Source of the DNA: a bacterium
Lineage (GTDB): Bacteria; Auribacterota; UBA3054
Assembly (NCBI GenBank): GCA_017557885.1
Contig: JAFYXV010000008.1
Span: forward strand, 66,843 to 130,842
Length of the DNA stretch: 64,000 nucleotides
Reading direction: 5' to 3'
Positions 2,441-59,143 of this stretch are shown here, in pieces. The notes under the pieces are model-generated. The model was given only the letters and a program-made list of their open reading frames with translations, searched no databases and was not told the origin of the DNA. Position numbers and translations under genes: made by a program. How positions within the stretch are numbered: the stretch's first letter is position 1; every line of letters begins with the position of its first letter.

Positions 2441-2452
2441 TTTTTACGAAAG

Positions 2453-5489: not shown

Positions 5490-5517
5490 GAAGGAGGCGT
5501 AGTTCCTTTTCCCTTGC

Positions 5518-5559: not shown

Positions 5560-5715
5560 CCAATCGCTTCCGCGGCGTCAGCTCCGGCGCGATCAGGCCT
5601 TCTGTGCGGGTCGCTTCAGCCGGCGCACGATCGGCAGGCGTCCTTGCCAGCCCTTCGCGTTCAGCCAGGCTAAAATTCCTTCCGCAGTGTTTGAACAACG
5701 CCGCCCAAAGGAGAT

Positions 5716-5746
5716 AAAAAAAAGAGACCCGCTTTCGCGGGTCTCT
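5716..5746 (-). terminator. Rho-independent terminator for the 5771..6412 gene
   Basis: AGAGACCCGC-tttc-GCGGGTCTCT hairpin; on the minus strand it is followed by T8. Confidence 0.65.
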
Positions 5747-5770
5747 TCCACAAGAATGCTAATTAGCTTC

Positions 5771-6412: not shown

Positions 6413-6434
6413 TTTATGTCTCCATAAATGTGGT

Positions 6435-6465
6435 ATTTTAAACAATGTCTCCCAAACGGAATCAA
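6435..6465 (-). promoter_or_regulatory. Putative sigma70-like promoter of the small secreted repetitive gene
   Basis: Minus-strand TTGATT - 18/19 nt - TAAAAT about 25 nt upstream of the RBS/ATG. Confidence 0.3.
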
Positions 6466-6698
6466 CAAAATTGTGACTCCCCTCCGGTGGGACGTTTCCT
6501 CGCCCGAAACTTTTCGGACTAAAAATAAAGGCTCGTTTCCCTGTATCGAAGGCCTTAACGCTCGAAGCTGTTATCCGGCCTTTCCCTCTACATTGTTTCA
6601 ATTATCGTAAGGAATTATAACAGAATGCCTGCCGGAAATCAAGTCCTTCTCCGGCCGGCGGGCTGGCGTTCCTGCAAAAACCGCTGCTTTCAGCCGTT

Positions 6699-9600
6699 TT
6701 ACATAACCTCGTTCAGCTCGTTCTCCCGAACGTGCTGGCGTTCCTTCTCCTCCAGGAGCAGCGCCGCCCCGTCCTTTTTCCGGCGTATCGCCCAGTTCAG
6801 GGGATCGCGTTTCCAATTTTCGGAATATTCTCCGTCTATCCTGCGGAAAGAAACGTCCGTGAACTCCACCGCTCCGGGGGAGGCGACGTTCTCGCTTTCC
6901 AGGCAGAAGAAAGAAATATTTTCTGAGCTGTTGGTTATGATCAGGTGCTCCTGGGTCCATTGGCCGCAGAGAGTCCGCCATTTCTTCACTTGGGAATCCG
7001 TATCGCCTCTTTGCCTGAACCGCATGGAAACTTCCGTGGGCGCTTCCCTGCCCTCCGGGATCCTGGCGTAGGCGGAGGCGGCGTAAACGCCGGGCGGCAG
7101 CATCATCCTGACCGAGGCGCCGGCCTTGCCGCCGGGTTCGCCCTGCTCGGAGAGTTTGAAGCCGGGTGTCAAAAGGAAGGTGGCGGGAAGCTTCTCTTCC
7201 TTTTCGGATTCCGCCCGCCATTCTCCCAGCCCTTTGATGAAGTAGCCGTTCATCAGCTGCTCGGCTCCCTCGAAAACTATAACGGCATGCCTGGGCAAAG
7301 AGTTGGTTATGATGCCGCCCATTTCCTTTTGTGCGCTTTCGGAAGCGGGCAGGTCGCCCCTGGCGTCCATCGATTTCTTAAAGGTATCCCACTCTTTGAC
7401 GAAGATCGCGTTTTCCGGACGATTGAGATAGATCTTGTCGAAGGTCTCGGTAAAAGCGCGGAAGTTCTCGTCCGCGAAACCGTAATTCGCTTTGAATTGG
7501 CTTGGGGCTATGAAGGGGATCAGGCCGCCGGCTTTGTAATAGACGTCGAAGAGGAGCCAGGGATCCGGCGTTTCGTTCTTGAGCATTTCAAAATAAGCCC
7601 TGGCCCCCTGGCGGTTTCCGGTCTTGACGCAGAAGAAAAACCGGCCTATGCAGTTGCGGCTTTTTTTCAGTTCGTCTTCCGAAGCGCCTTCCAATCCTTT
7701 TACGATCCATTTGCGATAGGCTTTCCGGATGCTTATTACCGAATAGTCGTCCTGGGAGAGAGGCGGCAGATAAAGCAGCTGCGGGCTTATTTCATAGAGG
7801 GCATCCTCGCTCCAGGCGGAGCGCACGCATTCCGCCAGAGCCAGCGTCATGGCCGCCAGCTGCTGGGGGGAGTGGACTTTCTCCACGGATCTCAAAAGCG
7901 CCGTGGTGTCGTTGACAGCCATGACCGAGCAAATGTCGCTTATGGAGTTGAAATCCGGCCTGCCTATGGTGGAAATGAACCACCAGGCGTAGCCTGTCTC
8001 GCCCAGGAATCTCTCGTCGGCGGAAAGGTAATCGTTGTTTTCCAAAAACACCCATTTGCGGGAAAGTTTCCTTCTCTGCTCATAGCGCAGCACGTCGTAG
8101 AGAGAGGACAATCCCAGGCTTCCCTCTTCGCTTTTTCCCATGCCGGGAAGAACTATGAAGTCTCCCGAACGGAACCCGTTCTCCTGGCTGTCCAGGACCT
8201 GGCAGACTTTTTCCATGACGTCCGAAAGATCGCTGCCCTCCAGCTCGTAGGAGGAACGCCTGTAGCCGAAGAGGAAGGCGACCAAGGGCAGCACGATGAG
8301 CATCGCCGCCAGCGGGCGCAGGCGCGGATTGCCCAGGAAGCGGCTGAGAAGTCTGGCGCAGAGCGTCGCGAAACGGCCGATGAGGATCCCTCCCTGCCCT
8401 ATCGCCGCGGCCAGGAAGACCGTGGAAGCATAGCCTGCGGTCCCGGGATTCAGCTCGCTGACCCGCAGGTAGAAATAGAATAAAACGGTGCTGAGGATGC
8501 CGTAGAGCCCGCAGCGTTTAAGGTCCGTCAGCCACATTAGGAGAATGCCCAGAACGACCGACAGGCCGCAGAGAAATTCCGTGTTGTTGAGCCAGTGGGT
8601 AACCAGGAAAGGATTGGGCGAGGAGGCGATCCAGAAGTTTCCGTTGACTTCAAATTTGGTCGGGTCAAGAGTGCCGCAGAAGAAATAGATCGACGCGATG
8701 GGCAGCAAAAGCGGCAGAAGCCTTGAAACAACAAGGACGGCGAAACTCGCGAAGCTCTTCTGCCTGGCGTTCCAAATTATTCCTATGATCTGCGTCAAAA
8801 AGATCAGGATAAGGCACAGGAACGCAAAGGACGGCATGGCCCCCGGGAAGCCCGCCAGAAGGGAGATCAGAAGGCAGCGGAAAAGATAATACTTGTAGCC
8901 GCTCTGGTAGCTCTTCAGCGAGGCGCAGTAAGAGGTCAGTATCAAAAGCAGCAAAGTCATCTGCAGAACGAAAAGCCCGCCATCCAGCTGGAGTATATTT
9001 CTCCCGGCCAGGAAGAAGACAAGGCCAATGGTCACCGCGGTGGAGGCGGTCAGGATGCCGACCAATCCCTGGATCAGCGCCAAAACGATCAGGCAGCAGG
9101 CGGAGACCACAAGGGACATAAGGGAGTACTGGGCCGGCGTCACCAGAAGCGCGTAGTTCAGCTTCGCGCAGATCCTGGCGTAGGCTATCTGAAGCGTGGT
9201 GAAAGCGGCGCCGCTGCGGTCCGCGGCTTCGCTCATAAAGACGTCACGGATATTCTCAAACATGTGGGCCTGACGGAACACATGCCCCTGGTCCATGGAG
9301 AAATTGCGGTAAACGTCCTGGGAAACTCTCCAAAGGCAAAAGACTGCCGCCGCTATCACCAGCGCGCCGATCAGCTTCGCGCCGATCTTTACGTAGAGGT
9401 CGTTGCCGCCTCTTAAAAAGCCCTGGCTGAAAACGCCGCGGCTTTCGCTCTTCCTGGGCAGCGAAGAAACGTAGGCGTCCTCCCGGTCGTTGTAGTAAGC
9501 GTCGCCTTCGTTTTTCTTTTGGAAAACGGAGGCAGCCCAATCGGCAAGATCCATTATCCTGAAAAAGGCGAGGAAGGCAAAAAACTTGTCGGAAAGCGAA

Positions 9601-10543: not shown

Positions 10544-10563
10544 AACCTTCATTTTAAAGCGCT

Positions 10564-11457
10564 ATGTTTTCATTCCTGAACCGCGACCTGGACAACTACT
10601 CCCCTCCCAAGGAACGGGAGATCATGCCGTTGGGCAAGCTTCTCGCCTACGCCCAGCCTCACATCGTCCCCTATGTGGTCTACGGCGTCTGCACCGCGGT
10701 CCTGGGCAAGATAATCAACCCCTACCAGGCTTACATCTTCGCTTTCCTCCTGACGCTTCTGGTCATCGGGATCTATTATGTCAAGGGCGATTATCCGGAG
10801 CTCACCTTTAAGGGCCTGAAGTTCCGGGACTGGCTCCTGGCCTTCGCCGTAGGCGTGGTGGGCATCGTCCTTTGGATCCTTCCCTATCACTTCGCCTGGA
10901 AAGTAATGTTCGCCCGCATCCCCATTCTGGGCAACGACAACATCTACCTTTCCCTGACCTACGGCTTCCAGTTCGCGGAGGACGCTTTCCACAAAGCCTC
11001 AGGAGCGCTCGTGATGCTGCCGACGGAATATCCCGAAGCCGCTTATTCCAAGGAAGTCCTGGCGGACGGCGCCGCCAAGCTCAAGGATTTCTTCTCCCTT
11101 TCCTGCGACGCGAATTTCCTGGCCGGCTTCCTGACCTTCGTAAGGATCGCCGGCGCCTCGCTGATGGTTCCGCTTTTCGAGGAGCTTTTCAGCCGCTCCG
11201 CCCTGACCCGTTTCTGCGTGGCTGAAAAATACAAGGAAGTGCCGGTCGGCTACTACACCAAGAAGAGTTTCCTGATCGCCATCGGCTTCTTCATCCTTTC
11301 CCACCCCTGGTGGTTCGTGGCCCTGATCTGGGGCGGCCTGATCTTCTTCCTCTATTACTACAAAAAAAGCCTTCCCCTCTGCATTTTCGCCCACGGCGTG
11401 TCCAATCTTCTCCTGGGCCTTTATGTCATTGCCACCGGCAACTATTACCTTTGGTAA
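10564..11457 (+). CDS. CPBP-family (CAAX protease-like) intramembrane metalloprotease
   Basis: Multi-TM protein with the CPBP motifs EELFSRSALTRF (EExxxR) and FAHGVSNLL (FxxxH...N). Confidence 0.7.
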   Translation: MFSFLNRDLDNYSPPKEREIMPLGKLLAYAQPHIVPYVVYGVCTAVLGKIINPYQAYIFAFLLTLLVIGIYYVKGDYPELTFKGLKFRDWLLAFAVGVVGIVLWILPYHFAWKVMFARIPILGNDNIYLSLTYGFQFAEDAFHKASGALVMLPTEYPEAAYSKEVLADGAAKLKDFFSLSCDANFLAGFLTFVRIAGASLMVPLFEELFSRSALTRFCVAEKYKEVPVGYYTKKSFLIAIGFFILSHPWWFVALIWGGLIFFLYYYKKSLPLCIFAHGVSNLLLGLYVIATGNYYLW

Positions 11458-47731: not shown

Positions 47732-50700
47732 TTATTTTCTGCGAAGAACGGCTATGCCGAGAAGAGCCAGCAGGAAGAGCGCGGCGGGTTCGGGGACCAC
47801 GGGCGTCAGCTTGACGCTCACGCTTTCCACGCAGACACTGTCGTTGGCAGTGCTGAGGAGCATCCTGAGGGCGTCCACGCCTTCCGTAGCCTTGACGGAG
47901 CCGCTGGTTATGGGCGCGTCAACAACGACAGGATCAGCGGCCCAGGTGAATTCCCTGAACTGCTTGTTGCCGGTCTTGGTGTTAAGTTTGACGGCGTAAT
48001 CGAAAGTTTCGCCGACGGCCGGTCTGGCGGTGGCCAAAGCGGTGGCCGGAGAGTAATCGTTGAAGGTGGGGACAAAAGCGTCGCCGCTTCTGGAGACTAC
48101 GACTTTCATCTGCCTGTGCTCGGAGTCCTGAGTGAGCGTCAGGTCGCCGGCAGGAGCTTTGGTGAAGAGCAGCTTGTAAGCGATCTCAAGATCGTATTTG
48201 TCAGCGATGCCTTCGCCGATGCCGAGAGCGTAGAAGAGGCCGCCTTCGCCGGCCGTGGGATTCTCGGAGGTCTTGGCGTATTCCAGAACGAGGCCGTCGG
48301 AGAAGGTCTGGCTCAAGTCTCCCCTGTCGGTCGCAATGGCTTCGACTTTCAGATCGTCGATATCGAAGGTGCCTTCGCCCCACTGGAAGAAGCGCAGAAT
48401 GGAGAAGGTCTGCGTCTCGTTCTCCTGGTCGCAGAGATATTCGCCGGATTCTTCGTTATTGCCGATCCTGACCTGTCTGAGGACGTGGCGGGCATGTCCT
48501 TCGCTGTCCGTAATAGTGTCGGCGCTGAAGACGGCGCTGAACTCGGTCCACTCGTCCTTTGCGATGGCGTTCTCGGAAACGAATTCCGGATGCGTCTCGT
48601 CGGACTTGTTGCTGGCGAATCTGTAGGATCCGTCGTCATAGCGGAACTGCGTTTCCACGCACTGCGGCGTCCAGAGGCCGAGGTTCTTGGCGGTGGTTCC
48701 GCCCAGTCTAACTTTGAAGCTGACCTTGAAGAAGCCCTTGGCTTTGCCGCTGGCCGCGACCCAGTCGTTGTCCAAAGTCTTGTCCAGCTTCTTGTGGATG
48801 CCGAAGAGGCCGGTAATATCTTTCAATCTAAGATATTTGTTGCCGTTCTCTTCTTTGACGATGGTGCTGCCGTTGACGTCGATGGCGCCGTAGGCCACGC
48901 TCCAGTTGTCCTCGCCGCAGAGATCCTTGCCGTTTTCATATTTCTCAAAGTCTTCCGTAAGCAGCGTGTCGTAAACTTCCCAATCGGCGGTGCTCTTAAT
49001 TTGGGCGTTGACGTCGGCTTCGCCCTTTATGTTCCGGTCGAAGAATCTGGGATCGCCCTTGGGGAACTCGGCGAAATTGGCGCTGTAAACTTCATAGCCT
49101 TTTTCCGGAGTGCCGTTGGGAGCGCCGACTCTGAAAGTGCCCTTGCCCGCTTCGCCGAGATCGATAGTTGCCAAAGTGGAGGCGTACTTCGCTTCCGCAG
49201 GCAGCGTCTTGGGCGTCACCTTGATGGACTGGAATCTCTGGAAGGTGCCGCTCGCAGGCTCAGCCCTGAAGAGATCTTCGTTCTCGAAGGAAACGCTGAA
49301 GTTGGCGGTGGTGCCAGGCAGTTCGTTGGTGATCGTGATCGTCCCGTATTCCTTGGAGAAGGTGATGGGGTCGTAATCGAGGGCAAGTATGGGAACGGAC
49401 TGCTTTTTCGGGGTGAGCTTGGCGTCCACCGCTCCCACGCGGGCCTGGCCGGAACTGAGGGAGAACTTGATCTTGTCAATGGCAGTTGTAGCGTCAGCGC
49501 CGGTAATAGGCAGATTCTCCTTGTAATAGGTGCCGTCCCAGTAGAGCTGCCTCAGGTTCTTCTCGGTGGTAGAGATGTCGTAGCCATAGGTGAACCATTC
49601 GCCGGCGTTGGCTGTGAAGGTGCCCTGCACGCCCTTGACGTTCGAATAAGTCAGGTTGACCTTGTTCTCGAAAAGCCTGAATTCCGTGGCAAACTGCTTG
49701 TGGAAGTCGTCCTGCCCGAAAGTCAGCGCTCCGTTGAAACCGGAGGGAAGCATCATCTGGGCGGCCACGGTGATGTCGTACTTCTTGGCCATGGCTTCCG
49801 TAAATCCCAGTTTGATTTCGACCGAACGCCCGTTATCGTTGCCTAAGAAGAGATCCATGGGATCCTCGTCCGGGAAGTCCAGGGTGTCGTAATCGGTCTC
49901 GGAAACGATGGTCTCGACTTTCAGATTGTCAAGGCAGAAGGTGCCGCTGCCCCAGAGGAAGAAGCGCAAGGTGTTGAAGAAGTCACTGTTGCTGCTCTGA
50001 TCGAGGAAAGCTTTGCAATTTTCAACCTTGTCGCCAACCTTGTACTGGCGCAGGATGTGGCGGTAGTTGTCCCCGGAAGCATCCGACACGGGCTTCGCCT
50101 CTATGATCATGCTGACTCTCGTCCAGCTGGCCTGGGAAATGTAATTCTGGGAAACGAACTCCGTATGGTTGGCGTCGCTGGCGTTGCTGCGGAAGCGGTA
50201 GCCGCTGCCGTTGACATACTCGAAGTTGCCCTCCACCATCTGGGGATCCCAGAGTCCGAAGAACTTGCTGGAAGTGCCGGTCAGCATGGCGTCGAAGCTG
50301 ATGCGGAAGTAGCCTTTGGCGTGGCCTTCCCACCAGTTGGGCTTCATCTGGACGTCCAGCTTTTTGTGGGCGCCGAAGAGATTGTTGACGTAGGCGATCT
50401 CGCAATATCTGTTGCCGAATCTTTCCCTGACGTAGATCGATCCGTCCCTGTCGATGGTGCCGTAGCCGCTTCCCCAGCCGCCGACGCCGCCAAGGTTGGT
50501 GTTGCCGGGATAATCTTCGAAGTCTTCGTCAAGCAAGACTTCCGTAACGTAGTGGTCGAAAGCGTAGTCAAGGTTGCCGCCGTTTTCCCAGAGGCAGTCG
50601 TAATCGCCGGGATTGCCTTTCGGGAACGTGGAGAGATCGGCGGAGTAGAGGCCGTAGCCGTCAGTTTCGTTGCCGCAGGGCGCGCCGAGGCGCACTCTCT

Positions 50701-52825
50701 TCGTGCCGGCGTAACCGGCTTCCACTTCCACCACGCATTCCAGGAACTGGGGAGTGGTGGGAAGATCGAAAGCTTCCACCTGGATCGTGGCGTCGCTCTT
50801 GAAAAGGCCTTCCACCGGGGAGATCGTGAAGTGATCGGCGCCTTTTACGATCTTGGCTTTATATTTGATGGTGGTGTTCTCGTGGCAGTTCGTCAGAGCG
50901 ATGGCGGTAAGGGTGGAGCCTATTTCCATCGGCTTGGCGGAAAGCTTAAGTTCGCCGATGCCGCAGTCCACATGGATGTCGTCGAAGTCGGCACCGCCCG
51001 AGCTGACGTCCTTGAGCCAGACAGAGCTGATGTAAACGTCGTCGGAGCCCGCGACGTAGCATTCGGTCGCGCTGTGGTACTCGTTATTGACGGACCAGCC
51101 AATGAACTCCTTGCTGTTTTCGTCAATAAAGAAGGTCCAGGTCTGCCAGCCGGTACTGATCTGCTGCAGAGTGGTGGATTTGTTGACGCTGCCGCCGGGA
51201 GTGGAAGAGCAGGCCAGGCTCAGCTTTCCGTCGCTGGTGACGTAAGCGTAGCAGAGAGCGTCCTTGGCGCCCCTGATGTCGAAGTAGGTGCCGCCGAAAG
51301 TCGGCTTGACCTTTACGCTGACCTTGTAGGTGCCGTATCCGTTGTCGGACTTGACGTTGACGGGAACCTGGAAGCCGTTGCCGCCCTGGCTGTGAAGGTA
51401 ATAGTTGCCGTTCTGTTCCTTGATCTGGCCGGTGGCGCTAAGATTGATTATGCCCTGTTGCCAGGTGGCGTCGCCCAGATAGAAGTCTTCGTCCGCTTCA
51501 AATCCGCAGTTGAATTCGGAAAGCACGGGAGGCGTGCGGTACAGAGAGGCGTACTTCCTGATCTTCTGCCAGACGGTGGCGCATCTGGTCTTGCTGTTGT
51601 AATAGACCGCGGAGCCGCCGTACTGGAGAAATTGTTCGGAGAAATAAGGCACCCTGTAGCCGTAGTAGGTGCCGTTCCAGCTGCCGTGGTAGGTCATGAT
51701 GGAAAGGCATCTCTGGGTAAGGTTGGTGGCGTAGAAGTAGCAGCCCAGGCTGTGTCCGAAAAGACCGCCGTCCGACGGTCCGGGGCTGCTCGACTGTTCG
51801 GCGGAGTGGTTGCAGCCCATGTTGTGGCCCCACTCGTGGACCCAGGAAAGATCTTCCAGATAGCTGTAGAGCACGATGTGGAAACCGCAGCCTTCCGCGC
51901 CGGTGGGGCTGCCGTGGACATAGCCTAAACCGGCCCAGCCGGAAGTCATGTATCTCGGGGCGTAGCAGACGAAGTCGGCGCCCAGCTTGTCCCTCAAGGC
52001 GGGCACGAACTCGAAGCCTTCCTTGCCCTGCTGCATGCGGGAAAGGTCAGTGCTCGAGTCCTTCGTTTCCTCGTAGTCGCAAAGGTAAGTGCCGACGCAG
52101 GTCAGCTTCGCTTTTATAAGGCTGTTCTGCATGGCCTGGTTGCAGACCGCGATGCCGGCGGCCACCTTCGTGTTGGCGGCTTCCAGACTGCCGGCGGACT
52201 CGATGGATTGGTTGGAGAAGAGGACAATGATGGTCAGCTCCACCACTTCGTCGTCGTCCCAGTTGGCGGCCCAGGCGGACTGCTCGGGAGTAAGGTCAGC
52301 GGCGGGAACGCCGAAGCTGGAAATAGAGTTCTGTTCCTCCCAGACGGGCGCTTCGTGATCCTCCGGATTGGACATCTGGGCGCAGCGCTCGCTGTAAGAA
52401 CATTCCTTAACTTCGTAAACGCCTTTCTGCTTGGTGCCGCTGATCTCGTAGCGGGCGTCGGCCGTAAGGTCTTCCACAACGCCGAAAAGCACGTTGGGGC
52501 CGGCCGCGATGCGCCACTGGCCGGCGAAATTGTCCAGATTACCGGCCCGGCAGACGATGCCGTTCACGTCTTTGACAGCGTAAGTGACGTCGCCCTTCAG
52601 TTCGCCCTGGGGCGTCAGGAAAGTCACCCTGTCGCCTATTTTAAGCTCGGCTAGGGCGAACATAGCGTTCTCGACCTTCGGCTCAGGCGCACTGGGGTAC
52701 GTCGAGAAAATTTGGGCTGTCTGAGCCCCGCTGGGGTCAAGAGTAAGGCAGAAATCCGCGGCGAAGGACGTCGCGGCAAAGATGACCGCGATAACGGCGG
52801 CCAGGATCTGGTAGTGCTTGCGCAT
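47732..52825 (-). CDS. Giant (1697 aa) PEP-CTERM-anchored secreted protein with N-terminal metzincin-type zinc metalloprotease domain and internally duplicated beta-rich domains
   Basis: Signal peptide MRKHYQILAAVIAVIFAATSFA; HEWGHNMGCNH (HExxHxxGxxH); two homologous roughly 200-aa modules (LLDEDFEDYPGNTNLGG...DNLKVE and LLTEDFEKYENGKDLCG...DDLKVE); C-terminal VPEPAALFLLALLGIAVLRRK. Confidence 0.75.
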   Translation of the reverse strand: MRKHYQILAAVIAVIFAATSFAADFCLTLDPSGAQTAQIFSTYPSAPEPKVENAMFALAELKIGDRVTFLTPQGELKGDVTYAVKDVNGIVCRAGNLDNFAGQWRIAAGPNVLFGVVEDLTADARYEISGTKQKGVYEVKECSYSERCAQMSNPEDHEAPVWEEQNSISSFGVPAADLTPEQSAWAANWDDDEVVELTIIVLFSNQSIESAGSLEAANTKVAAGIAVCNQAMQNSLIKAKLTCVGTYLCDYEETKDSSTDLSRMQQGKEGFEFVPALRDKLGADFVCYAPRYMTSGWAGLGYVHGSPTGAEGCGFHIVLYSYLEDLSWVHEWGHNMGCNHSAEQSSSPGPSDGGLFGHSLGCYFYATNLTQRCLSIMTYHGSWNGTYYGYRVPYFSEQFLQYGGSAVYYNSKTRCATVWQKIRKYASLYRTPPVLSEFNCGFEADEDFYLGDATWQQGIINLSATGQIKEQNGNYYLHSQGGNGFQVPVNVKSDNGYGTYKVSVKVKPTFGGTYFDIRGAKDALCYAYVTSDGKLSLACSSTPGGSVNKSTTLQQISTGWQTWTFFIDENSKEFIGWSVNNEYHSATECYVAGSDDVYISSVWLKDVSSGGADFDDIHVDCGIGELKLSAKPMEIGSTLTAIALTNCHENTTIKYKAKIVKGADHFTISPVEGLFKSDATIQVEAFDLPTTPQFLECVVEVEAGYAGTKRVRLGAPCGNETDGYGLYSADLSTFPKGNPGDYDCLWENGGNLDYAFDHYVTEVLLDEDFEDYPGNTNLGGVGGWGSGYGTIDRDGSIYVRERFGNRYCEIAYVNNLFGAHKKLDVQMKPNWWEGHAKGYFRISFDAMLTGTSSKFFGLWDPQMVEGNFEYVNGSGYRFRSNASDANHTEFVSQNYISQASWTRVSMIIEAKPVSDASGDNYRHILRQYKVGDKVENCKAFLDQSSNSDFFNTLRFFLWGSGTFCLDNLKVETIVSETDYDTLDFPDEDPMDLFLGNDNGRSVEIKLGFTEAMAKKYDITVAAQMMLPSGFNGALTFGQDDFHKQFATEFRLFENKVNLTYSNVKGVQGTFTANAGEWFTYGYDISTTEKNLRQLYWDGTYYKENLPITGADATTAIDKIKFSLSSGQARVGAVDAKLTPKKQSVPILALDYDPITFSKEYGTITITNELPGTTANFSVSFENEDLFRAEPASGTFQRFQSIKVTPKTLPAEAKYASTLATIDLGEAGKGTFRVGAPNGTPEKGYEVYSANFAEFPKGDPRFFDRNIKGEADVNAQIKSTADWEVYDTLLTEDFEKYENGKDLCGEDNWSVAYGAIDVNGSTIVKEENGNKYLRLKDITGLFGIHKKLDKTLDNDWVAASGKAKGFFKVSFKVRLGGTTAKNLGLWTPQCVETQFRYDDGSYRFASNKSDETHPEFVSENAIAKDEWTEFSAVFSADTITDSEGHARHVLRQVRIGNNEESGEYLCDQENETQTFSILRFFQWGEGTFDIDDLKVEAIATDRGDLSQTFSDGLVLEYAKTSENPTAGEGGLFYALGIGEGIADKYDLEIAYKLLFTKAPAGDLTLTQDSEHRQMKVVVSRSGDAFVPTFNDYSPATALATARPAVGETFDYAVKLNTKTGNKQFREFTWAADPVVVDAPITSGSVKATEGVDALRMLLSTANDSVCVESVSVKLTPVVPEPAALFLLALLGIAVLRRK

Positions 52826-52992
52826 AAAAAAACCTCCTAGGGATTATTTCATTCATTTTATCAAATTTTGGGCTTCCGGCAAATTTTGAGCCCTCCGCAC
52901 CTTGTTTCATTTTCCCTTTTTGGATAAAATAGAAAGATACTGAAATAAAATTGATAATTATGCTCACATTCATCCCACAAAGGAGAATAGTC

Positions 52993-54441
52993 ATGAAACT
53001 GCACAAATATCTCCCGGCTCTGCTCGCTGGCCTTATGTCCGTCGGCCTTTTGGCTGACGTCCTCATCAGCGAATTCACCTATGACGCCAAGAAGCCCTTT
53101 AAGAGCGACGACTGGGTGGAGATCTGCAACTACGGCGACGGCGCCGTCGATATCTCCGGCTGGAAGCTCGGCGACGACAAATACGACGAGGGCGGAACGC
53201 TGTTCACTATCCCGGAAGGCACCACTCTTGCCGCCGGCGAATGCGTAGTCCTCTATTCCGACGCGGCTTTCACCAGCATCTACCCTGACGTTGAGAATAT
53301 CCTCGGCCCCACCGGCATCGGCTTTGGCAAAAACAGCGACGACGTGGTCTTAATTGACAAGACCGGCAAAGTTCAGCACAAGATCGAATATTCCACCATC
53401 TCTGACGGCGGCGAATGGCCGGACGGCTCCGCTTATTCCAACGTGCTCGTCTATCCCTACGCCGACTACAACAACACCTGGCAGACCTGGAACGTCAGCA
53501 ACTCCGAAGGCGGCTCCCCCGGCACGAAGAATCCCGAGACCTGCGGACTCTATGTCGGCAAGCACAGCCGCAACCCCAACGCCCCCACTTCCGTCACTTC
53601 CCCCGAGATCCACATCTGGGCCTATGACAACAGCAGGAACGACAAGGCCGTAAAGAGCGCCAAGATCTTCTACTCCACTTCCGAAAGCGGCGAATACACT
53701 TCCAAGAGCATGACTTTGCTGGAAGGCAACGAATGGGTCTGCAACCTTCCCGCCATGGAAGAAGGCACCACTGTCTTCTATTATGCGCTTGTTGAAGATT
53801 ACAGCGGCAACACTCTGAGAAAATACTGGAACGCCTACAGGGCCCCCTACATGTACGTCGTCACCAACGAGCCCGTCTATTCCGGCGTCGTCATCAACGA
53901 GATCATGTACCAGTGCCTCGACATAGCCTACACCAACACGAAGGGCAACTGCAAGAACTACGAATACGTGGAGCTCTTCAACCGCACCGACGAAGACATA
54001 GACGTCAGCTACTGGCGTTTTGAGACCAGCGACGACAAGTACCGTCTGCCCAAGGACACCATCCTGGGCGCCAGGGAATTCCTGCTCATCACCGACCGCC
54101 AGGCCGCCATTGAGACCGTTTACTCTCTGCCTGTGGGCGCCGCCATCTACGAATTCGACTTCGGCCTTTCCAACACCGGCGACACTATCTCTTTGCAGAA
54201 CGCCAACGGTCAGGAAGTGGACGTTGTCACTTTCAAATCCACCGCCCCCTGGCCCACCGGCTGCGCCGGACTTGGCCCCTCTCTGGAATTGAGCGATCCC
54301 AACGCCGACAACACCCAGCCCAACGCCTGGGCCGCGTCGATCGCGATCTACGGAACTCCCTGCGAGACCAACAGCGTGCCGGAACCGGCTTTCGCCCTGA
54401 TGGCTCTGCTGGCTTTTGCCGGAGCCTTCCTCAGAAGGTAG
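52993..54441 (+). CDS. PEP-CTERM-anchored protein with two lamin-tail-domain (LTD)-like modules
   Basis: ATG at 52993 preceded by AGGAGA (track ORF TTG 52951); signal peptide MKLHKYLPALLAGLMSVGLLA; LTD-like LISEF...DDWVEICNYGDGAVDISGWKLGDD and VVINEIMYQ...YEYVELFNRTDEDIDVSYWRF; C-terminal VPEPAFALMALLAFAGAFLRR. Confidence 0.65.
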   Translation: MKLHKYLPALLAGLMSVGLLADVLISEFTYDAKKPFKSDDWVEICNYGDGAVDISGWKLGDDKYDEGGTLFTIPEGTTLAAGECVVLYSDAAFTSIYPDVENILGPTGIGFGKNSDDVVLIDKTGKVQHKIEYSTISDGGEWPDGSAYSNVLVYPYADYNNTWQTWNVSNSEGGSPGTKNPETCGLYVGKHSRNPNAPTSVTSPEIHIWAYDNSRNDKAVKSAKIFYSTSESGEYTSKSMTLLEGNEWVCNLPAMEEGTTVFYYALVEDYSGNTLRKYWNAYRAPYMYVVTNEPVYSGVVINEIMYQCLDIAYTNTKGNCKNYEYVELFNRTDEDIDVSYWRFETSDDKYRLPKDTILGAREFLLITDRQAAIETVYSLPVGAAIYEFDFGLSNTGDTISLQNANGQEVDVVTFKSTAPWPTGCAGLGPSLELSDPNADNTQPNAWAASIAIYGTPCETNSVPEPAFALMALLAFAGAFLRR

Positions 54442-54456
54442 ATCGAGAGTCGCGAA

Positions 54457-55551
54457 GTGTGGCTTTGGCTTAGATATTTCCTCATCATCGCCCTTTCCGG
54501 CGTCGTGTTGTATTTCGTTTTGCAGACCGACGTCGCCGCTTTGAAGTGTCCTTTTGAACTGGAAGCTTCCGAGCAGTGGACCATCCAGCAGGAAAGGCCC
54601 GGGGACTTTATAGCCAAGCACCTCAAGGGCCGCATGCAGGCCCTGGCGGGCGTTACGACCTTCCGCTTCGACCGCTACGACGTGGTCAACACGGAACTGG
54701 CGCCCGGCATCAAAGAAGGGTCCCTGGTCAAAGTTGGCGACCATGTCCTGACCTTCCACTCCCTCTACGACGAATCGCAGAAGAAGATGCTCCAGGCCAA
54801 GGTCGATATGTACCAGGCAACGCTGGACAATCTCCTCTCCGGCGAATTGCAGGAGCGCGTCACGGAAGGCGAAAAGCTCGTCTCCCTGGCCTACACGAAT
54901 TACTACAGCTATCTTCCCTTGGTGGAGCGCCGCCGGGAACTTTACAACACCGGCTACATCTCCAACGACGAAGTCCAGCAGGCGGAGGAAGAACTGAACA
55001 GCCGCTTCGCGGAGATCAGCGTGGCGGAGGCCGATCTGAACGCCCGCAAAATGGCCTGCTCCTCCAACGTCATCAACACGGCCAGGGCGGAGCTGCGCGT
55101 CGCTCAGAAAGAGCTTGAAATGGTCAACGACCGCCTGGAAGCCAGAACGGTTACGACTCCCGTAAACGGCCGCGTTACCCAGGTCTCCCTTGACCCGGAA
55201 ATCAAGACCATCCTAAGAGTTGTCAACGAGGATCCCATTTACGCCCGCGTAGTGGCCCCGCTGAATTTCTCCAACGAGATCCAGCCCGGCCTTGAAGCTG
55301 TCCTGTCCTTCCACAACGAAGACCTGACCGTCACCGGCAAAGTGGAATCCGTTTCCATCGTTCCGGTCCCCTTGATGGGTCTTTCCGTCGTGCACGCTCT
55401 TATTCCCATAAGGGACGTCCCCTTCTCCGCCATCTCCTCCATGACCGGCGAAGCCATCATCCCCTCCATCAAGATAGACCCTTACCACTCCTCTCTTGCG
55501 GCTCTGCGCTCTCTCTATCAGAAATTCAACAACTCCCTTCGCAAGGAGTGA
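54457..55551 (+). CDS. HlyD-family membrane fusion protein / periplasmic adaptor-like protein
   Basis: GTG start 15 nt after the upstream stop; N-terminal TM helix, coiled-coil region (QAEEELNSRFAEISVAEADLNARK...AELRVAQKELEMVNDRLEA) and beta-barrel motif TVTTPVNGRVTQVSLDP. Confidence 0.6.
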   Translation: MWLWLRYFLIIALSGVVLYFVLQTDVAALKCPFELEASEQWTIQQERPGDFIAKHLKGRMQALAGVTTFRFDRYDVVNTELAPGIKEGSLVKVGDHVLTFHSLYDESQKKMLQAKVDMYQATLDNLLSGELQERVTEGEKLVSLAYTNYYSYLPLVERRRELYNTGYISNDEVQQAEEELNSRFAEISVAEADLNARKMACSSNVINTARAELRVAQKELEMVNDRLEARTVTTPVNGRVTQVSLDPEIKTILRVVNEDPIYARVVAPLNFSNEIQPGLEAVLSFHNEDLTVTGKVESVSIVPVPLMGLSVVHALIPIRDVPFSAISSMTGEAIIPSIKIDPYHSSLAALRSLYQKFNNSLRKE

Positions 55552-55554
55552 AAA

Positions 55555-56298
55555 ATGGCGAATTTCCACGGCCGCTACGAGCTGAAGTATTTTCTTCCCT
55601 ATGACCTTATAGACAAGGCCATAGCGTACGCCTCGCCTTACGTCCAGCCAGACCAGCACGCCAAGCCCAACGGCCTGGGCGTTCCCGGCTACACCATCCG
55701 CTCCGTTTATTTTGACGACGACAACCTGACGCTTTACAAAGAAAAACTCATAGGCTTGAAAGACCGCAGAAAATTCCGCGTCAGGGGCTACGCCAACGTC
55801 ACGCCCGACAACAACGTTTTCCTGGAAATAAAATACCGCTCCCGTCAGCAGGTCGGCAAGGACCGCGCGCCCATGAAATTAAGCGAACTTCAGGAGATCA
55901 TGGACCGCAGCAAGACTCTCGACGAAGTAGAGTTTCCCACCGACTACCTGAGGGCCAACGCCCACCGCTTCCTGCACAACTGCTTCGTCAAAGGGTATCG
56001 TCCCATGACCACCGTCATCTACGACCGCAACCCCTTCATCGGAAAAGACGACGGCGAAGTCAGGTTCACCATCGACACGAACCTCAGGGCCGTGGATCAC
56101 TCCTATTCCTACACGCTTTTCGAACCCTACGAGGAAGAGCAGATCGCGCTTCCCGGAGCCATATTGGAACTGAAATTCGACCGCCTCATGCCGGAATGGA
56201 TGCGGCGCTTTTTAACCAAATTCGAGATCACCCAGACTTCCATATCCAAATACGCGCACTGCATAGAAAAAGTAATATTGCGCGAGGAGGAAAGTTAA
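55555..56298 (+). CDS. VTC-domain protein (CYTH-like, polyphosphate-polymerase-domain family)
   Basis: N-terminal RYELKYFLPYD...RSVYFDDDNL...RRKFRVRGYANVTPDNNVFLEIKYRSRQ pattern typical of bacterial VTC domain proteins; 3-nt gap from the upstream gene. Confidence 0.6.
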   Translation: MANFHGRYELKYFLPYDLIDKAIAYASPYVQPDQHAKPNGLGVPGYTIRSVYFDDDNLTLYKEKLIGLKDRRKFRVRGYANVTPDNNVFLEIKYRSRQQVGKDRAPMKLSELQEIMDRSKTLDEVEFPTDYLRANAHRFLHNCFVKGYRPMTTVIYDRNPFIGKDDGEVRFTIDTNLRAVDHSYSYTLFEPYEEEQIALPGAILELKFDRLMPEWMRRFLTKFEITQTSISKYAHCIEKVILREEES

Positions 56299-56301
56299 TT
56301 T

Positions 56302-57027
56302 ATGAATCAGACTGCCGAATATGAAATGATGCAGTGGACGCTGAACGCCCTGGCGCCGACCACCTGGATAGACGTGGTCAACAACTTCGCCGTGGCCGCG
56401 CTCTTCGCGTTCCTCTTGGTTTTGCTCTACCGCTTCTGCCGCGGCGTGCACGGCAACAAGACCTTCATGCAAACGCTGGTCATGATGGAGATCATCATAA
56501 CGCTTGTGATGATGGTCATCCTGAATGTCCGCGGCTCCTCCGCCGTGGCCGTGGCTTTCGGGTTGATGGGCGCCATGAGCGTTGTCCGCTTCCGCACCAT
56601 CATAAAGGATAACCGCGACACTGCCTTCGTCTTCATGGCCGTGGCCCTGGGCATGGCCGCCGGCACCGGCCAGCACAGGATCGGCGCCATCGGCTTCGTC
56701 ATCATCTGGCTCTCCTTCGTCTTCACGGAATACACTCCCTGGAGCCTCCGCCACAGAGAGATCATCGCCAAGATCATCTTCAGCACCGAAAATTCCGAGA
56801 GCAAGCTTGATTCTGGCGCTGAGATCATGGGCCGCATGAAGCAATTGGGCACCTCCATAAAAATGCTGCACTCCCGCACCATAAAATCCGGCACCGCCAT
56901 CGAGGCCACCTACTCCTTCCGTCTGAGATTCAGAGTCAGCGAGGAATACGCCACCGCCCAGCTGATGGGCTTAAAGTGCGTGGAATCCGTCAGCCTCTTC
57001 TCACCTTCAGAAGTCGAGGAGCCCTGA
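56302..57027 (+). CDS. DUF4956-like membrane protein (usual partner of bacterial VTC-domain proteins)
   Basis: Multi-TM; GLMGAMSVVRFRTIIKDNRDTAFVFMAVALGMAAGTG resembles the DUF4956 core. Confidence 0.55.
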   Translation: MNQTAEYEMMQWTLNALAPTTWIDVVNNFAVAALFAFLLVLLYRFCRGVHGNKTFMQTLVMMEIIITLVMMVILNVRGSSAVAVAFGLMGAMSVVRFRTIIKDNRDTAFVFMAVALGMAAGTGQHRIGAIGFVIIWLSFVFTEYTPWSLRHREIIAKIIFSTENSESKLDSGAEIMGRMKQLGTSIKMLHSRTIKSGTAIEATYSFRLRFRVSEEYATAQLMGLKCVESVSLFSPSEVEEP

Positions 57028-57028
57028 C

Positions 57029-57334
57029 ATGAACGCTTACCGCAAAGCCGCGGACGCGCTGGCGGTTGTGGTCCTTCTCTGGGCTATCGCCATGCTCATA
57101 GCCTTCGCTCCCAGGTTCGCCAACTTCACCTCATTGCATGAGGAAGCAGTAGCGGCTTTCCAGAACGCCCCCACCCTCACAAACGAACTCAAGGCCAACG
57201 TTATCAAGCTCTGGAACGCCGAGGCCGCCAGCAACGGCCTTCTCGTCATCAGCTGGACCGGCTTCGCCGCCGCCGAGCTTATCCAGGTAATCCTCGCCTT
57301 CATCGCCCGCCGCAAGGAAAAGCAGAATGCCTGA
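57029..57334 (+). CDS. Small membrane protein of unknown function (101 aa, two predicted TM helices)
   Basis: ATG 1 nt after the upstream stop; hydrophobic segments ALAVVVLLWAIAMLIAF and LLVISWTGFAAAELIQVILAFIA. Confidence 0.45.
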   Translation: MNAYRKAADALAVVVLLWAIAMLIAFAPRFANFTSLHEEAVAAFQNAPTLTNELKANVIKLWNAEAASNGLLVISWTGFAAAELIQVILAFIARRKEKQNA

Positions 57335-58466
57335 CCGCGAACCAAACTCTTACGAAGAGATAATCGCCGCCGCGCCCCATGGCAGCAAAAAATATTGGAC
57401 CGAGATCCCTGACGATTACCAGAGCATGGTTTTAAGCTCCCTGCGGGCCCGTATAGCGGGCTGCAACCTGGGAGCCATAGTGGAAGGCTGGTCTCTCATA
57501 AAGATGGAAAATTACGCCAAGGAGATCGGCGTCCCCTACCCTATGACCGACTACTGGCCCTCCTCCCCGGACCCGGAGGAACCGCGCTACATCCTCGGCA
57601 GGAACCGCCAGTACACCAAGGGCGAGATGAGATATTCTCCCGTGGACGACGACACCACCTACACCATTCTGGGTCTCCTAATAGCGGAAGAAGCGAAGAA
57701 TTTCCCATTCGCTCTCGACGACGTGGCAAATGCCTGGCTCAAATATCTGCCCATGGCCTGCACCGCCGAGAAAGTGACCTTGGACAATCTCAAAGCCGGC
57801 GTCGCTCCAGAAAAAGCCGCTGAGATAAACAATCCTTACGACGAATGGATCGGCGCGGACATCCGCTGCGACGGCTTCGCCTACATGGCACCAGGCAACC
57901 CGAGATTAGCCGCCAAATTAGCCTACACAGACGCTTATCTGAGCCACCGCAAAAACGGCATCTACGGGGAAATGTATTTTGCGGCCGTCATCAGTTCCGC
58001 CTTCGCCCTGAAAGATACCAAAGCCGCCCTGGAAGCGGGACTGTTTGAGATCCCGGAAAACTGCGACCTGGCGGCAGCGGTTAAATGGGCCCTCTCCCTT
58101 TACGGCAAAATAAAAGACTACAGAGAAGCCGCGAAACTAGTCGATGAGCGCTTCCCGAATATGTCTCCCGTCCACACCATCAACAACGCCTGCCTGACCA
58201 TATTCGCCCTGGGCCTCGGGCATGAAACGAAGTCCATAGACACCGTCATCTCGCAGTGCGTCGCCATGGCCCACGACTGCGACTGCACCGCCGCCACCGC
58301 CGGCTCGATCGCAGGCGCGGCCTGGGGAAACGCCACGCTCTCAGATCACTGGTATGAACCTTTCAACGACATCCAGGAAAGCTACCTCATAGGCCGCCGC
58401 GTCTTCGGCATCGAGGACCTCTCCTTCCGCTTCGCCGCCCAGGCCAAGCGCCATAAAAAACTTTAA
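57327..58466 (+). CDS. ADP-ribosylglycohydrolase (ARH/DraG) family protein
   Basis: C-terminal MAHDCDCTAATAGSIAGAAWG matches the ARH D-x-D-x-T...AG..GA motif; overlaps the upstream gene by 8 nt. Confidence 0.65.
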   Translation: MPDREPNSYEEIIAAAPHGSKKYWTEIPDDYQSMVLSSLRARIAGCNLGAIVEGWSLIKMENYAKEIGVPYPMTDYWPSSPDPEEPRYILGRNRQYTKGEMRYSPVDDDTTYTILGLLIAEEAKNFPFALDDVANAWLKYLPMACTAEKVTLDNLKAGVAPEKAAEINNPYDEWIGADIRCDGFAYMAPGNPRLAAKLAYTDAYLSHRKNGIYGEMYFAAVISSAFALKDTKAALEAGLFEIPENCDLAAAVKWALSLYGKIKDYREAAKLVDERFPNMSPVHTINNACLTIFALGLGHETKSIDTVISQCVAMAHDCDCTAATAGSIAGAAWGNATLSDHWYEPFNDIQESYLIGRRVFGIEDLSFRFAAQAKRHKKL

Positions 58467-58483: not shown

Positions 58484-58525
58484 ACAACAAAAAAAGAGTC
58501 GTGCAAACGACTCTTTTTTTGTTGT
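58484..58525. terminator. Bidirectional rho-independent terminator (A-run / hairpin / T-run palindrome)
   Basis: ACAACAAAAAAAGAGTCG-tgcaaa-CGACTCTTTTTTTGTTGT between the + strand operon end (58466) and the minus-strand tRNA-Gly. Confidence 0.7.
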
Positions 58526-58642: not shown

Positions 58643-59143
58643 TTAACGCTTCGAGAACTGGAAGCGGGCGCGGGCGCCGCGCTGGCCGTATTTCTTGCGC
58701 TCTTTCTCGCGGGCGTCCCTGGTCAGAAGACCGTTGGACTTCACGAGAGCCTTGGTCGCGTCATCGATGAGAGCAAGGGCTCTGGCGATGCCGTGACGGA
58801 TGGCGCCGGCCTGTCCGGAGATGCCGCCGCCGGCTACGGTGGCGACCACATCGAACTTGCCGATGATCTTGGCGGCTTCGAAAGCTTCCTGGACCAGCTG
58901 CCTGGTGGTGTCCACGGGGAAGTAATCCTCAAAGGCGCGGCCGTTGACGGTAATGGTTCCATTGCCGGGTTTCAGGACCACGCGGGCGCTGGATCTTTTG
59001 CGGCGGCCGGTGGCGGAGTAACTTTCGGTGAAGACACGGGTGTCCTCAACGGGAGCGGCCTGGACCTCAGGAGTGGTTTCGACTTCGGGAACCTCGACGG
59101 TTTCCGGGGTGACGTTGCTGTTTTCGCTCATATTATCACTCAT
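58643..59143 (-). CDS. rpsI: 30S ribosomal protein S9 with acidic N-terminal extension
   Basis: ...YSATGRRKRSSARVVLKPGNGTITVNGRAFEDYFP...KKYGQRGARARFQFSKR. Confidence 0.95.
   Translation of the reverse strand: MSDNMSENSNVTPETVEVPEVETTPEVQAAPVEDTRVFTESYSATGRRKRSSARVVLKPGNGTITVNGRAFEDYFPVDTTRQLVQEAFEAAKIIGKFDVVATVAGGGISGQAGAIRHGIARALALIDDATKALVKSNGLLTRDAREKERKKYGQRGARARFQFSKR

Follow-up and report, generated by a model that had tools for sequence, protein, structure and literature searches.

A cysteine-containing active-site signature in a widespread branch of the DraG/ARH superfamily, seen from a VTC/DUF4956 locus of a rumen lineage

Introduction

Few enzymes of the DraG/ARH superfamily have, to our knowledge, been characterised, namely DraG, Tri1, ARH1 and ARH3. 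All four use the ligand set E...[S/T]DD...DxD[S/T] together with Mg2+ or Mn2+. The selenoprotein SelJ belongs to the ARH/J1-crystallin family; our literature search gave no information on the position of its Sec residue, and we found nothing relevant in the literature on a characterised Cys-containing ARH or on a reclassification of the ARH fold as a glycoside hydrolase.

The coordination motif has been formulated as 'E...[S/T]DDT...D[S/T]D[S/T]', with the Glu following the first helix, and in ARH1 the residues Gly130 and His163, described as absolutely conserved, contact the pyrophosphate (PMC6309922). In human ARH3, MgA is bound by T76, D77, D78 and D316 and MgB by D314, D316 and T317, while E41 contacts MgII and D34 is absent from the listed Mg ligands (PMC8141533, PMC8319183; ligand roles in ARH3 and ARH1 are given also in PMC9738213). 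Activity of ARH3 is severely reduced by D34G, and the authors of that work place D34 within the active site; it is lost in the S148A and G150E mutants (PMC8319183).

Prokaryotic relatives include MJ1187 and E. coli YegU, uncharacterised 'ribosylglycohydrolases' encoded beside transporter and PfkB-kinase genes, that of YegU between yegT (putative transporter) and yegV (PfkB-type sugar kinase). In the ribose-utilisation loci of Bacteroidetes (Rus PULs), PF03747-type genes are accompanied by ribokinases, nucleoside hydrolases and LacI-type regulators, and the ADP-ribosylglycohydrolases encoded there have been suggested to free ribose from nutrients that contain it (bioRxiv 10.1101/574913). Here we describe an ARH-superfamily gene found in a stretch of 64,000 nucleotides of bacterial DNA (the window), and the branch of the superfamily to which it belongs.

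Results and Discussion

The gene under study is the following one:

57327..58466, + strand: ARH-superfamily gene (PF03747, DraG/ARH fold), 379 aa (ORF call, Pfam, AF2, Foldseek, dN/dS)

The ORF is real, and its product is a confident member of PF03747 with the ARH fold. It scores 121.2 bits against the Pfam profile (gathering cut-off 26.2, E=8.6e-35), residues 41-338 matching positions 5-284 of 287. The AF2 model (pLDDT 94.4, pTM 0.94) is compact, all-alpha and nearly all helix, and the top 48 Foldseek matches of this model in the PDB are ARH-fold proteins without exception, with MJ1187, DraG, ARH3, ARH1 and Tri1 matched at probability 1.0, TM 0.6-0.74 and 13-17% identity. MJ1187 (PDB 1T5J) is the best of them (E=1.3e-7, target-normalised TM 0.74, about 16% identity); DraG (PDB 3G9D, 2WOC) has the same all-alpha fold at a target-normalised TM of 0.73-0.74 and 15-17% identity, and human ARH3 (ADPRHL2/ADPRS; PDB 2FOZ, 6D36, 7AKS), at 14-16% identity, was aligned by hhalign along residues 33-350 with 99.0% probability (E=4e-17). 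Since the protein has no N-terminal hydrophobic signal sequence, it is presumed to be cytoplasmic. The dN/dS of the gene against six orthologues is 0.07-0.13. The protein stands outside the DraG and Tri1 equivalogs of NCBIfam, scoring 22.7 bits against a cut-off of 337 for TIGR02662 and 19.8 against 490 for NF041672.

The residues which can be compared with those of the characterised enzymes are grouped in five places:

57459..57485, + strand: motif 1, G45-C46-N47-L48-G49-A50-I51-V52-E53 (HMM alignment to DraG and MJ1187; hhalign to ARH3)
57645..57653, + strand: motif 2, D107-D108-D109, where helix 108-122 begins (hhalign with a 249-sequence profile; AF2 secondary structure)
57852..57866, + strand: G176-A177-D178-I179-R180, equivalent to the 'G-x-A-M-R' loop of ARH enzymes (ARH3 G152...R156; hhalign)
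57945..57947, + strand: H207, counterpart of ARH3 H182 and ARH1 H163, the buried pyrophosphate-contacting His (hhalign)
58275..58286, + strand: motif 3, D317-C318-D319-C320 (HMM alignments to DraG, ARH3 and MJ1187; hhalign)

Because a single-sequence phmmer search of the PDB aligned the C-terminal third alone, and a profile restricted to the central region gave no PDB match even at E<=10, the central motifs were mapped by hhalign, for which the ARH3 and MJ1187 target sequences were rebuilt from YegU-PDB alignments. A shallow profile misplaced motif 2, and its register was set by the 249-sequence profile.

An earlier note on this DNA had regarded the N-terminal motif, in residues 42-56 (RIAGCNLGAIVEGWS), as unrecognisable. 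The canonical Asp is indeed missing, but the motif itself is present, as it aligns in register with Asp to Cys at C46 as the sole change from the canonical G-D-A-L-G-x-x-x-E. The profile of 32 homologues, 'aGCtLGapvE' (aGCnLGaivE in the protein itself), aligns without gaps to 'cGDALGATVE' of DraG, and hhalign against ARH3, MJ1187 and YegU (97.8-99.0% probability) left the register of motif 1 unchanged. By hhalign C46 corresponds to ARH3 D34, and by both HMM alignment and hhalign E53 corresponds to ARH3 E41 and to E28 of A. brasilense DraG, which contact metal II. Cys at aligned position 46 thus occupies the place of the conserved Asp in the G-D-A-x-G motif of active ARH enzymes, and their metal-contacting Glu is present as E53. 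The same note had allowed that a canonical Asp motif might have been misjudged by eye; alignments to the DraG and ARH families return Cys46, and no second, Asp-containing copy of the N-terminal motif exists anywhere in the 379-aa protein. The C-terminal ARH signature which it had called clear (HDCDCTAATAGSIAGAAWG, residues 316-334) is present but is itself non-canonical, as D317-C-D319-C320 replaces D-x-D-[T/S].

Motif 3 corresponds to D314-T-D316-T317 of ARH3, ligands of metals A and B, with D317 at D314, D319 at D316 and C320 at T317; the Asps of the D-x-D-[S/T] motif of active ARH enzymes are present, and their Thr/Ser ligand of metal B has become C320. In motif 2, D107, D108 and D109 correspond to the metal A ligands T76, D77 and D78 (hhalign, 99.0% probability with the 249-sequence profile, the deeper profile being the only one that aligned this region), so that the vicinal pair D108-D109 is retained and the leading Thr/Ser of [S/T]-D-D is D107. 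The two-metal centre keeps all its acidic ligands (D108/D109 and D317/D319, with the metal-contacting E53), and the ligand substitutions relative to ARH3 are T76 to D107 and T317 to C320. Identical counterparts were found for ARH3 E41, D77, D78, D314, D316, G152, R156 and H182; the two proteins differ at the three positions D34/C46, T76/D107 and T317/C320, and also at S148-Y149-G150, the adenosine contacts, in whose place D172-E173-W174 stand in a moderately confident region of the hhalign alignment. DraG shares the two-metal acidic centre and differs likewise by Asp to Cys in motif 1, Thr to Asp in motif 2 and Thr to Cys in motif 3 (D-x-D-[T] versus D-x-D-C), and our protein has an insertion about 20 residues larger between E53 and motif 2. 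MJ1187 and YegU, distant relatives at about 16% identity, both have the canonical forms GDA(L/M)G...E, TDDT and GGDTD(S/T) of the motifs.

These features are not peculiar to one protein. G45, C46, G49, E53, D107-D108-D109, G176, H207, D317, D319 and C320 are invariant in the 32 homologues (51-92% identity), and among 249 aligned sequences of the wider clade position 46 is Cys in 227, Asn in 14 and Asp in none, and position 320 is Cys in 215 and Ser in 28. E53 is kept in 246 of the 249, each Asp of motif 2 in 244-246, G176 in 247, R180 in all 249 and H207 in 246; taken one by one, the acidic residues E53, D107-D109, D317 and D319 recur in 240-246 of these sequences, whose identity goes as low as about 32%. 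The clade amounts to 1995 clusters at 50% identity with E<=1e-3, 1188 with E<=1e-10 and 303 with E<=1e-30, and a relative is encoded on 472 genome stretches. Members come from Clostridia, Planctomycetota, Verrucomicrobiota, Chloroflexota and rumen MAGs. As the alignments read, a signature of E53, D107-D108-D109 and D317-x-D319-C320, with C46, is close to invariant across many phyla, and the clade is a large, widespread and uncharacterised branch of the DraG/ARH superfamily.

The two cysteine positions vary together. Positions 46 and 320 form the pairs C/C in 205 sequences, C/S in 16, N/S in 11 and N/C in 2 (Fisher p=4e-10, uncorrected for phylogeny), and column 320 is the strongest APC-corrected mutual-information partner of column 46. 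A co-varying Cys/Cys pair thus stands where canonical enzymes have the motif-1 Asp and the motif-3 Thr/Ser, the co-variation being confounded by phylogeny. Homology, the phenotype of ARH3 D34G and the co-variation suggest that C46 lies near C320 and near the metal site. The altered metal coordination or substrate specificity proposed earlier is in this light plausible, though the reason given for it, the changed N-terminal motif, does not hold, as the Mg ligands listed for ARH3 do not include D34.

Loss of the motif-1 Asp, whose equivalent substitution D34G cripples ARH3, and of the Thr/Ser ligand of metal B might lead one to see here a catalytically dead ARH-fold binding module, a pseudoenzyme like vertebrate ARH2/ADPRHL1 or J1-crystallin, and an inactive binding module had also been among the earlier suggestions. 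We consider this very improbable, because the dN/dS is about 0.1 and the signature is near-invariant, each of its acidic residues being present in 240-246 of the 249 sequences, which span several phyla; the substitutions are, moreover, both conserved and co-varying, which argues for a defined alternative site and not for decay. The gene looks like an ordinary, intact and apparently functional member of its clade, a modest lead for enzymology which is neither broken nor exotic.

At its own locus the gene is the last of a compact series:

54457-55551, + strand: HlyD-like periplasmic adaptor gene (NCBIfam HlyD/EmrA-type matches, all far below cut-offs)
55555-56298, + strand: VTC domain gene (Pfam VTC, E=2.1e-41)
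56302-57027, + strand: DUF4956 membrane protein gene (Pfam DUF4956, E=1.1e-15)
57029..57334, + strand: predicted two-TM ORF, 101 aa, its TGA stop overlapping the ARH start codon (ORF call; no Pfam or NCBIfam match)
58484..58525, no strand assigned: hairpin with a 19-bp stem and A and T runs on its flanks (terminator scan)
58643-59143, - strand: rpsI (Pfam Ribosomal_S9)

Gaps of 1-3 nt separate the HlyD-like, VTC, DUF4956 and 101-aa ORF genes, and the ATG of the ARH gene lies within an 8-nt overlap (ATGCCTGA, 57327-57334) with the end of the 101-aa ORF, preceded by a Shine-Dalgarno-like AAGGAA at 57314-57319. The translational coupling to the VTC/DUF4956 genes claimed before is therefore direct only with respect to the 101-aa ORF and reaches VTC and DUF4956 indirectly, through the short gaps upstream. 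The hairpin looks like a bidirectional intrinsic terminator, predicted to end the operon and facing the convergent rpsI. We considered whether the 101-aa ORF, for which neither Pfam nor NCBIfam gave a match, could be a frameshifted remnant of the N-terminal extension of about 70 aa seen in long-form homologues, and rejected this, because it is hydrophobic with two TM segments, is a separate gene conserved in the 92-94% identical contigs, and the N-terminus of the ARH protein aligns with the end of the extension.

One might take the ARH protein for a partner of the putative polyphosphate synthase/exporter made up of the VTC, DUF4956 and HlyD-like proteins, where it might, for example, process a nucleotide-derived by-product or primer. 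The overlap, the tight spacing back to VTC and the single terminator past the ARH gene agree with such a role, and the gene order is stable in 7 related contigs at dS up to 0.65, a stability that may point to a genuine functional link within this lineage. The arrangement is nevertheless confined to one narrow rumen lineage (loci L016-L021, at 89-94% identity, and L001): in the 10 kb around the gene, none of 74 loci of other lineages gave a blastp (1e-5) or phmmer (1e-2) match to the VTC, DUF4956, HlyD-like or small-TM protein, which makes the implied functional tie weak, and homologues at 51-60% identity already stand in contexts wholly unlike this locus. We know of no chemistry that ties ARH enzymes to polyphosphate, and the literature found for DUF4956 consisted of eukaryotic VTC papers only. 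A partnership with the VTC machinery as the function of the protein is accordingly something we hold to be distinctly unlikely; the link is real here, is lineage-specific and does not define the function of the family. An anti-phage defence role was rejected as well, as none of the six proteins of the operon, the ARH protein included, matched a PADLOC model at E<=0.01.

Elsewhere the neighbourhoods of clade genes vary between phyla, and many of these genes stand alone. A divergent AraC regulator lies beside the clade gene in 6 loci and at P0059, one locus has a LacI-aldolase-FGGY kinase-Zn-ADH-ARH operon, and GFO_IDH_MocA and AP_endonuc_2 genes also occur among the neighbours. In sister clades the ARH domain is fused to a PfkB kinase (P0209), an IU nucleoside hydrolase, LacI or SLH domains; the PfkB, nucleoside hydrolase and LacI fusions belong to sister branches at 36-38% identity with Ser, not Cys, at position 320. 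The ARH-PfkB fusion echoes the placement of YegU beside yegV, and the partners of the ARH genes in Rus PULs recur as neighbours or fusions of the present clade, a likeness by partner genes; unlike the Rus PUL genes, the present one is outside any PUL and has no adjacent ribokinase. Such AraC/LacI, sugar catabolism, PfkB kinase and nucleoside hydrolase contexts and fusions point to a cytoplasmic ribosyl or glycosyl hydrolase acting on a small molecule.

A genuine (ADP-ribosyl)hydrolase, which like DraG, ARH1 and ARH3 would strip ADP-ribose from proteins, nucleic acids or small molecules (such as O-acetyl-ADP-ribose, alpha-NAD or free ADP-ribosyl conjugates) in ADP-ribosylation signalling or detoxification, is the reading suggested by the ARH fold with its full acidic metal-ligand set. 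G176 and H207 fall opposite the conserved buried Gly and His that contact the pyrophosphate in ARH1 and ARH3, and a convergent NUDIX hydrolase gene lies downstream, at a median of 43 nt, in 6 Clostridia loci; the conserved G176/H207 and this gene may be compatible with an ADP-ribose-type substrate too. We think such a function rather unlikely all the same. The scores are far under the DraG and Tri1 equivalog cut-offs, and S148/Y149/G150 have D/E/W opposite them in the alignment, where G150E inactivates ARH3. Across seven contexts the neighbours annotated by Pfam include no ADP-ribosyltransferase family, no DraT or toxin gene occurs in the annotated neighbourhoods, and no ART-family gene is adjacent in the operon of the window; unlike DraG, the protein has no DraT, nitrogenase or PII context, and unlike human ARH3 it is prokaryotic and has metabolic-type contexts. 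The regulators and neighbours are of sugar-catabolism type, and one relative, being SLH-anchored, would be extracellular.

On balance we think it somewhat probable that the protein is a cytoplasmic glycohydrolase of the ARH superfamily, catalytically competent and metal-dependent, with its own active-site signature and a ribose-type small-molecule substrate. The two-metal centre would still bind a ribosyl (or similar furanosyl) group by its cis-diol and, by analogy with ARH1, ARH3 and DraG, would activate water to cleave the glycosidic bond. The thiol or thiolate at position 320 would probably shift metal site B from Mg2+ towards the softer Mn2+, Fe2+ or Zn2+, and C46 may act in the second shell as the canonical Asp does. 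As substrate, a small molecule or nutrient that contains ribose is more likely than a protein ADP-ribosylated by a dedicated transferase. As a long shot, one may even imagine that C46 and C320 with D107 build a thiolate-containing, possibly hetero-bimetallic (Fe/Zn/Mn) or redox-sensitive centre with a new chemistry or substrate class, such as Cys-assisted cleavage of a non-nucleotide furanoside, with a possible mechanistic tie to a VTC-type polyphosphate synthase/exporter in the rumen lineage.

Conclusions

Within a superfamily described so far through enzymes with the E...[S/T]DD...DxD[S/T] ligands, this clade has a fixed alternative set, with Cys for the motif-1 Asp, Asp for the motif-2 Thr and Cys for the motif-3 Thr. 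The database label 'ADP-ribosylglycohydrolase family protein', carried by all proteins of the clade, probably overstates what is known of their substrate. Knowledge of the clade's metal and substrate would widen what is known of ARH-fold chemistry and would improve the annotation of many gut and rumen genomes.

Results

The ARH gene (57327-58466, + strand) is a genuine open reading frame by ORF call and translation, with a product of 379 residues. That product is a confident match to the Pfam family PF03747 (ADP_ribosyl_GH), reaching 121 bits where 26.2 would suffice (E=8.6e-35) and spanning 5-284 of the 287 profile positions. Its scores against the NCBIfam equivalogs DraG (22.7 bits, cut-off 337) and Tri1 (19.8 bits, cut-off 490) are far too low for membership. 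An AlphaFold2 model made from 32 homologues (pLDDT 94.4, pTM 0.94) is helical almost throughout, and its structural neighbours in the PDB are exclusively of the ARH fold, namely MJ1187, DraG, ARH3, ARH1, Tri1 and an ARH-related protein of T. thermophilus, with TM scores of 0.6-0.74 yet only 13-17% identity. It is therefore an ARH-fold protein, remote from all solved or characterised members. Homologues come in two length classes, of about 350 and about 435 residues (alignment A1, columns 1-95), the longer with an N-terminal extension of about 70 residues; the protein studied here is intermediate and retains just the last 20 or so residues of that extension (EPxxYEEI...P.GSKK.W; window 57327-57400).

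The N-terminal metal-binding motif had been described in the earlier note as not recognisable. The homologue profile of this region ('aGCtLGapvE'; RIAGCNLGAIVEGWS, residues 42-56) pairs without gaps with 'cGDALGATVE' of A. brasilense DraG, 'vGDALGATVE' of R. rubrum DraG and 'iGDALGMPTE' of MJ1187. Human ARH3 and MJ1187 chain sequences were reconstructed via E. coli YegU alignments and taken into profile-profile alignment, which gave a probability of 97.8% with 32 sequences and 99.0% (E=4e-17) with 249, and the following correspondence.

Active-site residues and their equivalents in full-length ARH3 numbering
C46: D34
E53: E41
D107, D108, D109: T76, D77, D78 (249-sequence profile only; consistent with a model helix beginning at residue 108)
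G176, R180: G152, R156
H207: H182
D317, D319, C320: D314, D316, T317

ARH3 is known to bind MgA through T76, D77, D78 and D316, and MgB through D314, D316 and T317 (PMC8141533), with E41 contacting MgII (PMC8319183); the coordination motifs are E...SDDT...DSDS in ARH1 and E...[T/S]DDT...DTDT in ARH3 (PMC6309922). By these alignments motif 1 is in place and in register: it can be recognised and its metal-binding Glu (E53) is intact, although its Asp is truly absent. All four Asp ligands of the metal centre are kept as well. Compared with ARH3, Asp is replaced by Cys at 46, Thr by Asp at 107 and Thr by Cys at 320. The last change lies within the C-terminal signature (HDCDCTAATAGSIAGAAWG, residues 316-334), which had been called clear but is itself not canonical. 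The buried Gly and His that contact pyrophosphate in ARH1 and ARH3 align with G176 and H207, and the adenosine contacts S148/Y149/G150 of ARH3 with D/E/W; G150E abolishes ARH3 activity (PMC8319183). The pocket may thus still accommodate a phosphorylated ribosyl ligand, though the binding mode is probably different from that of ARH3.

Homology search returned 2983 matches, and a scan of every representative in a library of 1.84 billion clusters found 1995, 1188 and 303 related clusters at E<=1e-3, 1e-10 and 1e-30, respectively. Relatives are encoded in 472 genome stretches from Clostridia, Planctomycetota, Verrucomicrobiota, Chloroflexota, Kiritimatiellia, Melioribacteraceae and others. Throughout 32 homologues of 51-92% identity, G45, C46, G49, E53, D107-D109, G176, R180, H207, D317, D319 and C320 are invariant. 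A wider set of 249 sequences, reaching down to about 32% identity, keeps E53 in 246, each of D107, D108 and D109 in 244-246, D317 in 243 and D319 in 240. At position 46, 227 of the 249 carry Cys and 14 carry Asn, but none has Asp; at position 320 there are 215 sequences with Cys and 28 with Ser. The two positions pair as C/C (205), C/S (16), N/S (11) and N/C (2), with a Fisher p=4e-10 uncorrected for phylogeny, and among all columns it is column 320 that shares the highest APC-corrected mutual information with column 46. Comparison with six orthologues, 89-94% identical in amino-acid sequence and at dS 0.28-0.65, gives a dN/dS of 0.07-0.13. Conserved ligands, co-variation and low dN/dS together are what one expects of a working enzyme whose alternative active site has become fixed; they make an inactive module, as had been proposed, unlikely and a pseudoenzyme very improbable.

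Operon and its distribution

The ARH gene closes a tightly packed operon.

Genes of the operon
52951-54441, + strand: LTD/PEP-CTERM protein
54457-55551, + strand: HlyD-like (periplasmic) adaptor
55555-56298, + strand: VTC (polyphosphate-polymerase-like) domain protein
56302-57027, + strand: DUF4956 membrane protein
57029-57334, + strand: 101-residue ORF with two transmembrane segments
57327-58466, + strand: ARH gene

Its start overlaps the stop of the two-TM ORF by 8 nt (ATGCCTGA), with a Shine-Dalgarno-like AAGGAA upstream. The ARH gene is followed, ahead of the convergent rpsI/rplM genes, by a hairpin (58484-58525) with a perfect 19-bp stem and A and T runs on either side, which looks like a bidirectional intrinsic terminator. 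The genes at 52951-57334 look like a bacterial VTC-type polyphosphate synthase/translocase coupled to an envelope-spanning adaptor. Divergent from the LTD gene, a 1697-residue PEP-CTERM-anchored protein with a Reprolysin-like (M12) metalloprotease domain and internal duplications is encoded at 47732-52825 (- strand).

Identical gene order occurs in seven related rumen contigs: one metagenome contig at 92% identity and six rumen MAG loci at 89-94%. Homologues of the VTC, DUF4956, HlyD-like, LTD and small-TM proteins were absent from 74 other genome loci surveyed with 10 kb of flank per side where available (blastp 1e-5, phmmer 1e-2). Therefore the VTC link is a lineage-specific arrangement and not a property of the clade. 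The operon link to VTC/DUF4956 genes noticed earlier is real in the window but local, and a role of the ARH protein as partner of the VTC machinery, to which the overlap at the operon end could point, we regard as improbable, since the association is confined to one lineage.

Contexts in other lineages

Some 20-25 short-form Clostridia loci (among L022-L089), as well as loci L002-L008 (about 1200-7900), show a divergent cluster of FkbM-type methyltransferase, PF08543 kinase, ECF S-component, GalK-like (GHMP) kinase, MBL-fold and AP_endonuc_2 (TIM barrel) genes, plus PBP5 and PGI, and sometimes a flavin reductase, which points to a pathway that salvages or breaks down some imported small molecule. 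A divergent AraC regulator is found at six loci of several phyla and also adjoins homologue P0059, and one locus carries a LacI-aldolase-FGGY kinase-Zn-ADH-ARH operon near GH2, GH38 and fucosidase genes. Further neighbours elsewhere include GFO_IDH_MocA, Creatininase, URO-D-like and MatE genes. Fusions to PfkB kinase, inosine-uridine nucleoside hydrolase, LacI regulator and B12/radical-SAM domains occur in sister branches (35-38% identity; most have Ser at 320), and SLH cell-wall anchor fusions in one such branch that retains Cys at 320; some of these multidomain relatives (P0151, P0251, P0209, P0222, P0190 and P0240, 34-40% identity) could be gene-call fusions. PF03747 genes are also reported from Bacteroidetes ribose-utilisation loci with ribokinases and nucleoside hydrolases (bioRxiv 10.1101/574913), and in E. 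coli yegU has a transporter gene on one side and the gene for a PfkB kinase on the other.

A gene for a ThiD/PdxK-type kinase (PF08543; 62290-63096, + strand) follows the ARH gene at a distance of 3.8 kb, another is 1.3-1.7 kb from Clostridia homologues (L002-L008, about 5490-6680; L096, 13717-14517), and thiD lies 2.6 kb from yegU in E. coli; the proximity may be a coincidence, yet three unrelated lineages share it.

In six Clostridia MAGs (L061, L075, L076, L083, L086 and L089) a convergent gene for a 141-residue NUDIX hydrolase, at 10555-10980 directly downstream of the homologue in L061, lies a median of 43 nt past the homologue's end, and could hint at ADP-ribose-type metabolism. No ADP-ribosyltransferase was found in any annotated neighbourhood, and there were no PADLOC defence matches. 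These contexts, fusions, ribose-utilisation loci and the yegU setting together lean towards a ribosyl/glycosyl hydrolase of metabolism and away from a de-ADP-ribosylase with a regulatory role, and we consider a true ADP-ribosylhydrolase unlikely.

Proposed mechanism and significance

Metal B of the canonical enzymes is ligated by the Thr/Ser hydroxyl of motif 3, and an Asp (or Asn) in motif 1 seems well sited as the second-shell partner of that residue. Such a partnership may explain both the harm of D34G, an active-site mutation that severely cuts ARH3 activity (PMC8319183), and the pairing of Asn with Ser in the side branch and Cys with Cys in the main clade. We infer that C46 is close to C320 in space. 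A thiol(ate) ligand would fit Mg2+ poorly, so that site B may hold a softer metal such as Mn2+, Fe2+ or Zn2+, and the extra carboxylate of D107 would raise the charge at site A. Altered metal coordination or specificity, as was first thought, is plausible, but the changes at 107 and 320 would be more consequential than the loss of Asp at 46.

On balance we lean to a catalytically competent cytoplasmic metal-dependent ARH glycohydrolase, with a ribose-containing small molecule as the likelier substrate. Ordinary and intact, the ARH gene belongs to a large uncharacterised clade, itself a variant of an enzyme kind already known. Although none of this is categorically new, the co-varying Cys pair offers a clean and testable lead for enzymology.
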